This document shows positions 17,725-21,475 of a DNA stretch of 64,000 nucleotides, one piece after another (the first letter of the stretch is position 1; each line of letters opens with the position of its first letter). The notes under the pieces are model-generated. The model was given only the letters and a program-made list of their open reading frames with translations, had not been told where the DNA came from and did not search any database. Origin of the DNA: Enterobacteria phage Kha5h. Where the stretch lies: the sequence record NC_054905.1. One strand, given 5' to 3'. The position numbers and the translations under genes are program-made.

Positions 17725-17937
17725 TCATTTTTGTCCTGTATTTACTTTATGCCGATGCACGGCCTTAACTTTATCAAGGTATTTTTCAAAATTTCGCAAT
17801 CTAGTATAGTCTGCCGGAGATTGGTTGAGTGATACTTCTCGACGCAAAGCTGAAATGATATTTCCAACTTCCCTACGAATTTCATCTAATTGAAGCACAG
17901 TAAGATTGCGAAGTTGCTTTTCAGTTAATTGTAGCAT
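17725..17937 (-). CDS. hypothetical protein (70 aa)
   Basis: ORF track. Confidence 0.45.
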
Positions 17938-17979
17938 ATATACCCCTTTAGTTAGATAAACCTATTTATAACTTTTGCA

Positions 17980-18561
17980 CTAACCAAGCTTTTTAGTTAA
18001 TTCATTCCAATGTTTTCTGCACAAAGAAACATAAATTTCATCACCAATACAGATTTGATTACCTTCTTTAACTGGTGTTCCATCTTCCATTAATCGAGCT
18101 GTCATAATCGCTTTTTTGCCGCAATGACAAACTGCCTTTAGTTCAATAAGTTTATCTGCAATCGCTAAAAGTTCTTTAGAACCTTCAAACAATTTTCCAG
18201 CGAAATCAGTCCTTAATCCATAAGCCATAACAGGAACATTATATGTATCAACAATTCGGCTTAATTGGTGCACCTGTTCAGTTTTTAAAAACTGAGCTTC
18301 ATCTACAAATACGCAATGAATATCTTTTTGTGCTTCAGCCCATTTATAGAACTCGAAAATATCCATATCATCTGTAATAATATTCGCTTCCTGTTTAATT
18401 CCAATGCGAGAAACAACTTCACAGACAGAATCGCGAGTATCAATAGCAGGCTTAAGAACTAATACACTCATTCCACGTTCTTTATAATTATGTGCAGCAG
18501 TCAAAAGAGAAGCAGATTTTCCAGCATTCATTGCTGCATAAGTAAAAATTAAACTCGCCAT
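17980..18561 (-). CDS. tk: thymidine kinase
   Basis: 193 aa; P-loop AAMNAGKS; C-terminal Cys pairs typical of TK. Confidence 0.9.
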   Translation of the reverse strand: MASLIFTYAAMNAGKSASLLTAAHNYKERGMSVLVLKPAIDTRDSVCEVVSRIGIKQEANIITDDMDIFEFYKWAEAQKDIHCVFVDEAQFLKTEQVHQLSRIVDTYNVPVMAYGLRTDFAGKLFEGSKELLAIADKLIELKAVCHCGKKAIMTARLMEDGTPVKEGNQICIGDEIYVSLCRKHWNELTKKLG

Positions 18562-18570
18562 ATCACCTTC

Positions 18571-18756
18571 TTAAAGCGTATTCACATAAGCTATTAATTC
18601 ATTTTCTTTCTTATCAAACCGATCAGCAAATTCTTCCTGCTGTTCGGGAGATAGCGGGCCGTATTCATCATAAAAGGTGTTTGCTTCTGCATGCTCATCT
18701 AGAAGTTCATGGATAAGCTCAAACAATTTATCTTTTTGTTCTTTGCTTAGGCTCAC
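18571..18756 (-). CDS. small helical protein (61 aa), member of a small-protein family
   Basis: ORF track (GTG start); motif SKEQKDKLFELI resembles the 15.8-16.8 kb small proteins. Confidence 0.4.
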   Translation of the reverse strand: MSLSKEQKDKLFELIHELLDEHAEANTFYDEYGPLSPEQQEEFADRFDKKENELIAYVNTL

Positions 18757-18929
18757 AGTATGTCAATCCCCAAAAGTTTTAAAATGACTCGTTTCTGATT
18801 CATAACCGCTACGATTGAATGACCGTTGGGGTCTTTTTGACCCGATCCAATTATAAATCCTTTTTGTGCAGAAAGTTCAATCAAAACATCAAGTTCACGT
18901 AATAATTGATATTTTAAATCATCATTCAT
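18753..18929 (-). CDS. hypothetical small protein (58 aa)
   Basis: hand-translated (MNDDLKYQLLRELDV...), ATGA overlap with upstream stop; not in ORF track. Confidence 0.4.
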   Translation of the reverse strand: MNDDLKYQLLRELDVLIELSAQKGFIIGSGQKDPNGHSIVAVMNQKRVILKLLGIDIL

Positions 18930-19153
18930 TTTGGTTTACCTTCTTTAACGAAATCAGGATAAGGATAAAATCCCGAATAAAATCCTTCACCTTTATGATT
19001 GATGCATCCTTTATTAGAACAATAGCACCAATAATCGAAATCACAAGCCATTTCATCATTACATAAAGCAAAAACAACAGGCCACTTACACTTTTCACAG
19101 TGGGCATTTTTAAGAATACTAGTTTGGCTCATAACCATGTAACCTTTAAGCAA
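18926..19153 (-). CDS. Cys-rich small protein (putative metal-binding)
   Basis: 10 Cys in 75 aa (CEKCKW..., CNDEMACDFDYWCYCSNKGC). Confidence 0.45.
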   Translation of the reverse strand: MLKGYMVMSQTSILKNAHCEKCKWPVVFALCNDEMACDFDYWCYCSNKGCINHKGEGFYSGFYPYPDFVKEGKPK

Positions 19154-19341
19154 TATTCTTCTACATGTTGTTTACGACCTTTCTTATCAATAAAGGTATA
19201 TTCAACGAATGTTCCAATGTAGTCTTTATCTACATCATGTGGACTATTAATTGGACATTTAGTACGGCAAATGCGTTCCCATTGACGAATAATTTCCACT
19301 TTGTTTTTAGGATCAAACGGATGTGGGTAATGTACTTTCAT
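19129..19341 (-). CDS. hypothetical protein (70 aa)
   Basis: ORF track. Confidence 0.4.
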   Translation of the reverse strand: MKVHYPHPFDPKNKVEIIRQWERICRTKCPINSPHDVDKDYIGTFVEYTFIDKKGRKQHVEEYCLKVTWL

Positions 19342-19792
19342 AATCCACCACTATTAAATCAATATCAGGAGTAAACATGTCGATTAATTTAGAAACCTTA
19401 TCCCAATCGCCGCCAGCAATACCACAACCTATGCGTGGAATGTAAATTACTGGTTTAAACAAAAGGGTTTCTGCCTGTAGATTTAATTCTATCATGCAGT
19501 TTACTAAAGCACCATAATCAAGATTAGGACCTGGTTCGTATTGCGTATACAGGTTATAGCATATACCAAAACCATTAGGTTTATGTTTAAAAACAATAGA
19601 CATATCGCCTAATTTATCACGAGAACCGTACTCAGTAGTGGTTTTATCTATTTCTAAAATTTTGGGATAGGCTCTTGCTAATTGACCAGCTACACCACTG
19701 CCCATTGTATGAAAACAGTTACACCCATGCGCAATAATATTACCTTCAAGAAAGAGGGCGACAATATCGCCCTTGATATATTTTACAATCAT
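19313..19792 (-). CDS. macro-domain-like protein (putative ADP-ribose binding/processing)
   Basis: GDIV...MGSGVAGQLA and IPRIGCGIAGGDW resemble the two glycine-rich macro-domain loops. Confidence 0.55.
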   Translation of the reverse strand: MIVKYIKGDIVALFLEGNIIAHGCNCFHTMGSGVAGQLARAYPKILEIDKTTTEYGSRDKLGDMSIVFKHKPNGFGICYNLYTQYEPGPNLDYGALVNCMIELNLQAETLLFKPVIYIPRIGCGIAGGDWDKVSKLIDMFTPDIDLIVVDYESTLPTSV

Positions 19793-20130
19793 CTAGTACT
19801 CAATCCTCGATTATAAGAATCTACCAAACGGTCAACCATTGAATGACAAGCGGCTTTATCTTTTTCCTCCGCAACTGAACATTCTAAGGTATTCCACTTT
19901 TTAGCATATCGTTTTAACAATGTATCGTTTTTGTATCTGCTTGATTTATCTCTTTCTCCGTCTTTATATGCATATATTAATTTCTGCGCAAATTCAGCTT
20001 GGCATGCTTTATTTTTCCCGCAATAATCCGCTGCAGTACGGTTTACATACTCTCTAATTTCAGTATATGATGTATCTGCTAACGCAGAAAATGAAATTAA
20101 TCCTATACATAAAACCAAAATTTTAGTCAT
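19789..20130 (-). CDS. hypothetical secreted protein
   Basis: signal-peptide-like MTKILVLCIGLISFSALA; 4 Cys. Confidence 0.5.
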   Translation of the reverse strand: MTKILVLCIGLISFSALADTSYTEIREYVNRTAADYCGKNKACQAEFAQKLIYAYKDGERDKSSRYKNDTLLKRYAKKWNTLECSVAEEKDKAACHSMVDRLVDSYNRGLSTR

Positions 20131-20668
20131 TTACTATTTCCAAAAGTTTATTATTTTTAAGGTAATTAGCCTTTTCTAGGACTTCAGAAGCATATTTAGA
20201 ACCTGCTTTAACATTCCATCCCGAATTATAAGAGGATATTGCTTTTCTTATATCGCCCTTATGTATATTTAACCAATAAGAAAGTTCAATGTACGCCCAG
20301 GAAGCTGAATTGGACCGTTTATTCAACATTCTTTTTATTTCAGCATCGGTCATATTATAACCAAGTTCCTTAACTCTTGCTCGCATTGTCGGCAAATAAT
20401 TTTGGAACATTCCGTAGGCATGATGCTTTGGTTTAGATTTTAAATTAACTCCGGCAGAGCTTTCTTGCCATAAAATAGCAGCCATTATATGACCTAATCC
20501 GCTCTTGTGGATATTTTTGTGTGTTTTATATTTTCCATCCTTAGAAAATTGTTCCCCGAATTGATACGCGTAACGCATGTTATCGAGTTGGACATTACTG
20601 AAAGTATGCTCGGAGCTATGTGCCATCATTGAAATGGCCAATAGACCAGCGAGTAGTGCTTTTCTCAT
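20123..20668 (-). CDS. periplasmic lytic-transglycosylase-like protein
   Basis: signal peptide; SLT-like motifs QESSAG and AYGMFQ. Confidence 0.6.
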   Translation of the reverse strand: MRKALLAGLLAISMMAHSSEHTFSNVQLDNMRYAYQFGEQFSKDGKYKTHKNIHKSGLGHIMAAILWQESSAGVNLKSKPKHHAYGMFQNYLPTMRARVKELGYNMTDAEIKRMLNKRSNSASWAYIELSYWLNIHKGDIRKAISSYNSGWNVKAGSKYASEVLEKANYLKNNKLLEIVND

Positions 20669-20675
20669 GTTTACC

Positions 20676-21137
20676 TCATTGAGTTTTAATTACTGCTTTA
20701 GAAGCCTTTCCTGGTAAACGACGACTGTTGATAATTGCCATCCTGCATTGAAGTGACGGGTTTTTGAACTTCTCATTAGGCTTACAAACTGTAAATCCAA
20801 GCCAAAGATTTCCATCTGTGATTTCTAAACGTCCAGGACGATATTCAATCCCATCAATAAAATCCTCGTCAATGTCAGGACGCGGAGGCATACTCAGGAA
20901 TTCATTAACTTCTAAAACATGGTCTTTTATTTTATGGAATAATTCAAAAACGTATGTCTCATCAATCTCCCGTTGAATTGCGCGATCAAGAAGATGCTGA
21001 GAATATTTTAGATGAAACGATGAGACTCCTGCTGCTTTTGATGCCTCACGAATCTCATTGTTAATTTGACGAAACTCCGACTCAAAGTGACGACGAAGCT
21101 TATTTCGACGGATAAAAACTTCTGTGTTGATAGTCAT
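20676..21137 (-). CDS. regB: site-specific endoribonuclease RegB
   Basis: 153 aa; sequence MTINTEVFIRRNKLRRHFESEF... matches T4 RegB as recalled. Confidence 0.9.
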   Translation of the reverse strand: MTINTEVFIRRNKLRRHFESEFRQINNEIREASKAAGVSSFHLKYSQHLLDRAIQREIDETYVFELFHKIKDHVLEVNEFLSMPPRPDIDEDFIDGIEYRPGRLEITDGNLWLGFTVCKPNEKFKNPSLQCRMAIINSRRLPGKASKAVIKTQ

Positions 21138-21164
21138 GTTATTCTCCTCTTAACTGATAGAAAA

Positions 21165-21194
21165 ATTATACCACAGTCAAGAGGAAAAGTAAAC
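21165..21194 (-). promoter_or_regulatory. T4-type early promoter upstream of regB
   Basis: GTTTAC-N18-TGGTATAAT. Confidence 0.6.
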
Positions 21195-21196
21195 AA

Positions 21197-21475
21197 TTAT
21201 TCTTTAAATCTAATCAATTTATTCATAGACTTTGAAACTTCTGCACGAACCTCATGTAGGTTTTTAAGCTGTTCAAGACGCTGCTCATAGTAAGCAATTT
21301 CATCTTCTTCGAGACAGTCCTGCGAATCTTCTTTAAGATAACGTGCATAGTCCTGGAAAGCTTTACGGACTACTTCCTGGAAGTCATCAAGACTTTGAAT
21401 TTTCTTAGGAGCAACAGATACACGACGAGGGGCAGTATAATACTCATAACCAAACCCTGCGCTTAATTGAGCCAT
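21197..21475 (-). CDS. hypothetical protein (92 aa)
   Basis: start moved to ATG 21473-21475 ([12 protein letters not shown]...). Confidence 0.45.

Follow-up and report, generated by a model that had tools for sequence, protein, structure and literature searches.

What does the gene between tk and regB of Enterobacteria phage Kha5h encode, and could its product undo an ADP-ribosylation that a host directs against the phage? We addressed this question in a window of 64,000 nucleotides (the whole stretch of DNA analyzed; sequence record NC_054905.1), starting from an earlier note that had placed a 159-aa macro-domain-like protein at 19313–19792 in the tk-regB interval.

The tk.4 gene and its neighborhood

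The ORF listing contains an ATG-started ORF of 159 aa at exactly this position, and it lies on the minus strand, for which the earlier note had given no strand. It is situated with tk (17980..18561) on one side and regB (20676..21137) on the other, within a dense run of minus-strand genes ordered regB, vs.1, vs, tk.4, tk.3, three small ORFs, and tk. The gene and its junctions are as follows.

19313..19792, minus strand: tk.4/adfM CDS, encoding a 159-aa protein with a single macrodomain
19789..19792, minus strand: overlap of the vs stop and the tk.4 start (ATGA), seen directly in the DNA
19313..19341, minus strand: 29-nt overlap of the tk.4 3' end and the tk.3 start, from the ORF coordinates
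21165..21193, minus strand: promoter-like site of the sigma-70/T4-early type (TTTACT-17-TATAAT plus TG), a consensus match only

The ATGA overlap suggests translational coupling within the early gene string regB-vs.1-vs-tk.4-tk.3, and the promoter-like site upstream of regB could be the driver of this tk.4-containing string. JS98 and SP18 have the same tk.4/tk.3 overlap architecture as Kha5h, whereas in T4 the overlap is 4 nt instead of 29 nt and Tk.4 has 155 aa, 4 aa fewer.

Some public records start tk.4 at M30, giving models of 130–131 aa, as in the protein of Shigella phages SHFML-11/26 and the CDS 456-848 of Yersinia phage fPS-90. In an 86-sequence alignment, residues 1–29, N-terminal to the first glycine loop, hold the family-invariant H22, G23, N25, and C26, all of which the short models would lose. 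Because these invariant residues precede M30, we took the long ORF as the correct gene model, and the Met30-started form is very likely a gene-model error.

The T2 tk.4 transcript, mislabeled as "putative thymidine kinase", interacts with the host sRNA ArcZ and other sRNAs in a RIL-seq preprint (bioRxiv 10.64898/2026.06.19.733364), and the infected-cell proteome in the same work detected the Tk.4 protein at a level unchanged in the delta-arcZ host.

The surrounding genes have features of their own. From tk to tk.3 (18571-19153, minus strand), Kha5h is unlike T4 tk.1-tk.2 and carries ORFs of 61, 58, and 75 aa that match the function-unannotated PHROGs 653, 3452, and 2306, respectively. The 75-aa ORF is Cys/His-rich (CEKC...C...C.C...C..H), probably starts at Met8, and reaches a best identity of 23–52% to any T4 protein of the region. 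On the other side of tk.4, vs.1 (20123-20668) has a signal-peptide-like N-terminus and, in its matches, a weak resemblance to lytic transglycosylases (PHROG 2013 "lytic tail protein", E 8e-5), and vs (19789-20130) has a hydrophobic, signal-like N-terminal segment. In the HIDEN-SEQ preprint, vs was the most depleted gene in minimal medium.

Orthology with T4 tk.4

Megablast of 17900-21200 returned 748 phage records, the matches being T4-like phages mostly of Escherichia and Shigella, with Enterobacteria phage Aplg8 as the best (99.5%). Gene order is identical in the T4 reference, where tk.4 is annotated as "phosphatase; contains A1pp phosphatase motif", and BLASTP aligned the Kha5h and T4 proteins at about 57–58% identity over 155 aa (E 4e-70). 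From these matches, Kha5h can be assigned to Tequatrovirus and its gene to T4 tk.4 as an ortholog in the same vs-tk.4-tk.3 slot. Both proteins are single macrodomains and have all family-invariant residues in common, including H22, N25, D49, N80, Y82, Q84, G122, G124, and W130.

A match of tk.4 orthologs to the A1pp (macro) domain dates back to 2006 (PMC1524935). In a preprint of November 2025 (10.1101/2025.11.20.689424), tk.4 was the sole significant hit when a T4 transposon library was screened on a host expressing DarTG2, and a clean knockout of the gene rendered T4 sensitive to DarTG2; the gene was named adfM (anti-DarT factor Macrodomain), and removal of ADP-ribose from DNA was proposed with the words "seems likely". 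The suggestion of the earlier note that a phage macro domain could reverse DarT-type ADP-ribosylation gains support from this knockout phenotype and from the orthology, and the Kha5h allele would be expected to have the same anti-DarTG2 phenotype. Both the functional idea and the gene, as AdfM, are already known; what the present analysis adds is the Gln-type classification and the evidence for inter-genus allele exchange described below. With this function, tk.4 would explain the DarTG2 resistance of many T-even phages and be the natural companion of the NADAR-type AdfN, which handles DarTG1.

Family assignment and predicted fold

Tk.4 matched Pfam Macro (PF01661) with 33.1 bits (E 6.2e-8; gathering score, 22 bits) over profile positions 2–117 of 118, and PHROG 335 with an E value of 1.6e-71. 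The NCBIfam DarG model gave 27.8 bits against a cut-off of 250 bits, matching positions 2–142 of 338. Relatives were found by tblastn in 2772 phage records, an identical protein occurs in phage IME340, and several records already label it as "macro domain protein". By sequence, the macro-domain match is far beyond chance.

AlphaFold with the 86-homolog alignment gave a model with a pLDDT of 93.9 and a pTM of 0.89, showing the expected alternating strand-helix pattern. The single-sequence model (pLDDT 37.4) was discarded, and all structure conclusions rest on the 86-sequence-alignment run. The model contains the three-layer alpha/beta/alpha macro fold, the absence of which the earlier note had named as evidence against its reading. 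A structure search had also been proposed there; Foldseek against the PDB put macrodomains on top, with TARG1, Poa1p, BT1257, and DarG in the first tier (E 2e-10 to 1e-8) and coronavirus, alphavirus, and MacroD-type macrodomains below it (scores ≤13.8). These tiers place Tk.4 in the ALC1-like/TARG1-like class of macrodomains. The profile matches and the predicted fold thus bear out the description of the protein as macro-domain-like.

Active-site residues

The two glycine-rich motifs quoted in the earlier note, MGSGVAGQLA and IPRIGCGIAGGDW, were verified on the DNA as residues 30–39 and 118–130, respectively. They had been described as arranged like those of macro domains, and G31/G33, G122/G124, and N25 indeed align with DarG, TARG1, and SCO6735. 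The active-site elements are located as follows.

19676..19705, minus strand: loop 1, M30-A39, the GxG substrate-binding loop after strand 2, from alignments
19403..19441, minus strand: loop 2, I118-W130, the diphosphate-binding loop, from alignments
19541..19543, minus strand: Gln84 codon (CAA), from hhalign, the TARG1 profile alignment, and the joint alignment
19718..19720, minus strand: Asn25 codon (AAC), from hhalign and the joint alignment

G31 and G33 are invariant in all macrodomains aligned, and in loop 2 the counterparts of G122 and G124 are G126 and G128 of SCO6735, with A126 in the place of TARG1 D125. When the profile of the Tk.4 family was compared with that of a DarG-type set (Mtb DarG, Taq DarG, and PhiKZ gp104), the match had 98.6% probability and an E value of 8e-16, with the catalytic Lys80 of DarG (FPTK) falling opposite Gln84 of Tk.4 (LYTQ). 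In the family-profile alignment, TARG1 Lys84 fell on Gln84 and TARG1 Asp125 on Ala126. Gln84 shares its column with DarG K80, TARG1 K84, and SCO6735 Q85. The equivalents of Asn25 are DarG N22, SCO6735 N27, and PhiKZ AdfM N23, and mutation of this Asn lowers activity in TaqDarG (PMC5179494), SCO6735 (PMC9411070), and PhiKZ AdfM (PMC13309987).

Gln84 is invariant in all 86 homologs and present in 79 of the 80 viral loci. Among the viral loci, position 127 is Gly in 76 of 80, and the patterns with which the loci were retrieved skew the counts for the HGCNC and GxGxAGGxW motifs, so that D49, N80, Y82, and Q84, outside those patterns, are the only independent conservation evidence there. N25, Q84, G122, and G124 do not vary even in relatives as distant as 38% identity, a stand-alone bacterial homolog among them. 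The diphosphate loop of Kha5h, GCGIAGGDW, is the family consensus, with T4 (GAGIGKGNW) as the outlier, and therefore no sign of a degenerate allele is seen in Kha5h.

Likeness to SCO6735 and proposed mechanism

Streptomyces coelicolor SCO6735 (PDB 5e3b) and its close homolog, Bacteroides BT1257 (2afc/2fg1), are about 26–27% identical to Tk.4. According to the published work (PMC9411070), SCO6735 has neither of the TARG1 catalytic residues, the lysine position being Gln85; it cleaves thymidine-linked ADP-ribose off ssDNA and protects cells from DarT. Activity is abolished in its Q85A and Q85E mutants, all but lost in N27S, and reduced in G128E. We obtained its sequence via a BT1257 bridge query, and the numbering agrees with the published residues. 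The joint alignment paired the following positions (Kha5h Tk.4 first, SCO6735 second).

H22 with H24
N25 with N27
N80 with N81
Q84 with Q85
G122 with G126
G124 with G128
PRIGCGIAGGDW with PRIGCGLAGGTW

Kha5h Tk.4 shares the Gln-type features of SCO6735, namely Gln in place of the catalytic Lys, the Gln-locking Asn, and the diphosphate-loop Gly. There are also differences. The 6-residue insertion after the Gln in SCO6735 and BT1257 is missing in Tk.4; the DNA-positioning K34 and K89 of SCO6735 are S32 and G88 in Kha5h, where other basic residues may stand in; and SCO6735 and BT1257 are cellular proteins, whereas Tk.4 is viral. SCO6735 is the closest mechanistic model for Tk.4.

We consider it probable that Tk.4 is an early-expressed, Gln-type hydrolase of thymidine-linked ADP-ribose on phage ssDNA that counters DarT2. 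In this scheme, DarT2 released by a host DarTG2 system ADP-ribosylates thymidines in single-stranded phage DNA and blocks replication. Tk.4, stand-alone and expressed early, would use its two glycine-rich loops to hold the ADP-ribose and would hydrolyze the thymine-ribose bond, restoring replicable DNA. We infer that the mechanism follows SCO6735 by analogy: Gln84, locked by Asn25, would position the distal ribose, and water would do the chemistry, in place of a Lys nucleophile as in DarG or TARG1. A Gln-type site of this kind predicts that Q84A and N25A/S mutants lose protection. Several points speak against this explanation: the T4 preprint goes no further than "seems likely" for ADP-ribose removal; the genetically tested protein is that of T4, 57% identical to that of Kha5h; K34/K89 are replaced; the DarG HMM scores are only 27.7–27.8 bits; and many macrodomains accept several substrates in vitro. 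In addition, catalytically dead SCO6735 inhibits DarT by direct interaction (PMC9411070), and protection need not be purely enzymatic.

This last point leads to a distinctly unlikely alternative, in which Tk.4 protects non-catalytically, by blocking DarT2 stoichiometrically or by binding to ADP-ribosylated DNA. Dead SCO6735 Q85A inhibits DarT in vitro more than DarG K80A or TARG1 K84A does (PMC9411070), and between tk.4 alleles the surface-exposed middle of the protein is strongly divergent with the active site kept, which could mean co-evolution with a protein partner. However, the invariance of N25, Q84, G122, and G124 extends to a bacterial homolog that stands alone and lacks a DarT, Tk.4 has no DarT-binding C-terminal domain, and TaqDarG-macro K80A gave neither cell rescue nor DarT inhibition (PMC5179494). 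Protection by Tk.4 is taken here as probably enzymatic.

The substrate might also differ. T-even phages encode ADP-ribosyltransferases of their own. It is very unlikely, all the same, that Tk.4 chiefly de-ADP-ribosylates proteins or RNA, be it Glu/Asp-linked mono-ADP-ribose set by a host transferase, the marks set by the phage enzymes Alt, ModA, and ModB, or ADP-ribosylated RNA. Alt, ModA, and ModB target arginine, and to our knowledge reversal of arginine ADP-ribosylation is not known for the macrodomain class of Tk.4. In favor of this alternative, Glu/Asp-linked ADP-ribose on proteins is a further substrate of both TARG1 and SCO6735 (PMC9411070). According to PMC11618068, the mRNA ADP-ribosyltransferase CmdT targets T-even phages, but those carrying tk.4 stay CmdTAC-sensitive; moreover, the genetic phenotype is specific to DarTG2 (10.1101/2025.11.20.689424). 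Hydrolysis of DNA-linked ADP-ribose remains the preferred reading.

Differences from DarG, PhiKZ gp104, TARG1, and Poa1p

DarG, the DarTG2 antitoxin (PDB 5m3i, 5m31, 7omu), has two domains, the C-terminal one binding DarT, and is encoded beside darT, whereas Kha5h Tk.4 has one domain in 159 aa and is flanked by vs and tk.3. The catalytic K80 is required in DarG (PMC5179494). Membership of Tk.4 in DarG was rejected, as K80 is replaced by Q84, the second domain and a darT neighbor are missing, and HMM scores lie far below cut-off. With the PADLOC DarG model, Kha5h Tk.4 scored 27.7 bits and T4 Tk.4 36 bits, compared with 132.9 bits for PhiKZ gp104. We conclude from these comparisons that Tk.4 probably works like a DarG macrodomain, yet is not a DarG.

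PhiKZ gp104, likewise named AdfM, strips DarT2-placed ADP-ribose from DNA in vitro (PMC13309987; Cell Rep 2026). Like Tk.4, it is a phage-encoded stand-alone macrodomain, and it counters DarTG2; unlike Tk.4, it is a true DarG-type macrodomain with FPTK (E 9.4e-25 to Mtb DarG). Direct homology between the two proved marginal (BLASTP E 0.001 over 23 aa). The name AdfM, given independently, spans two macrodomain lineages, a Gln-type one with T4 Tk.4 and a Lys-type one with PhiKZ gp104. We also rejected a Lys/Asp mechanism like that of TARG1: the Lys84/Asp125 dyad of human TARG1/OARD1 (PDB 4j5r) is not shared by Kha5h Tk.4, which has Gln84/Ala126.

Yeast Poa1p (6lfq) is an ADP-ribose-1''-phosphate phosphatase with a longer insertion. 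We compared H23, S30, and F152, the residues mutated in Poa1p structures; H23 aligns with H22 and S30 with T29, and the C-terminal half aligns poorly. A Tk.4 that acts mainly on small ADP-ribose derivatives, as a Poa1p-like phosphatase or a degrader of an immune signal, would be in line with its similarity to Poa1p, with the older "phosphatase / A1pp" annotation, and with an argument made by Iyer et al. We regard this as unlikely, because the "phosphatase" label stems from the 2006 domain match and no assay (PMC1524935), the sole known ortholog phenotype is specific to DarTG2, a DNA-modifying system (10.1101/2025.11.20.689424), and the Gln84/Asn25 pair matches the DNA-ADPr hydrolase SCO6735. 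Specific support was found for none of the three alternatives. The common "phosphatase" label misleads, as do the truncated 130-aa models of public records, and correcting them is of value.

Exchange of tk.4 alleles among T-even genera

The Kha5h gene was compared with those of T4 and JS98-like phages in nucleotide-identity bins, which delimited one segment.

19290..19757, minus strand: allelic cassette, from nt identity bins against T4 and JS98-like phages

Against T4, the cassette has 30–77% nt identity per 30-nt bin, with sharp edges at about 19757 and 19290. At the protein level, Tk.4 is 57% identical to its T4 counterpart, compared with 100% for rI.-1, 99.5% for tk, 93% for tk.3, 97% for vs, and 99% for vs.1. 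The contigs of JS98-like phages (L002-L005), JS98 being a Dhakavirus, behave the other way round: their tk.4 proteins are 91–94% identical to that of Kha5h (83–97% nt identity per 60-nt bin), while tk, vs, vs.1, and regB are only 42–72% identical. For the flanks overall the figures lie at 42–74%, and for those of the block in the bins at 42–70%. This divergent tk.4 between near-identical flanks, with the opposite pattern in the JS98-like contigs, argues that the cassette was swapped between T-even genera. SP18 (Gaprivervirus) has the same allele at the same position, with 90.7% nt identity, 159 aa, and the 29-nt overlap. About 300 records of the phage collection have the Kha5h-type allele at ≥90% nt identity, and 224 have the T4-type allele at ≥90% aa identity, with 159 more at 80–90%; three or more classes of allele are represented in the phage database. 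Judged from these identity patterns, tk.4 appears to be an allelic cassette exchanged among T-even genera, which fits a counter-defense role. The swap suggests that, for a therapeutic T-even phage, host-range predictions on DarTG2-bearing strains may vary with the tk.4 allele present.

The origin of the cassette is a further matter. Capture from a bacterial DarTG operon was rejected: the one bacterial homolog checked, from Pelagimonas and 40% identical, stands alone among housekeeping genes with no DarT nearby, a single example and hence weak evidence. Tentatively, and with more doubt than confidence, we suggest that AdfM of the Tk.4 type may have come from Gln-type (SCO6735/BT1257-like) cellular macrodomains and not from DarG, bringing a lysine-independent reversal of DNA-ADPr, and that its alleles may be shuttled among Tequatrovirus, Dhakavirus, and Gaprivervirus and tuned to DarT2 variants or other ADP-ribosylating defenses. 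If so, tk.4 would be a mobile, diversifying counter-defense cassette.

A hairpin at the edge of the cassette

Folding revealed one further element, some 20 nt downstream of the tk.4 start and coinciding precisely with the 5' boundary of the divergent segment.

19755..19773, minus strand: 8-bp GC-rich hairpin with a U-rich tail, in codons 7-16 of tk.4

Some public records annotate this hairpin as a terminator (e.g., Yersinia phage fPS-90, 378-417). Compared with shuffled sequences, its folding is only modestly more favorable (z -1.74). The hairpin is absent from alleles encoding KGDIVKL or TGNIVEL and is kept in all 11 distinct sequences encoding KGD[IL]VALF; in one lineage (L012/L018), it is preserved by synonymous compensatory changes (AAG..CUN to AAA..UUN, and GAU to GAC). 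It could act as an attenuator or stabilize the 3' end of vs mRNA, or it could just follow from the codons.
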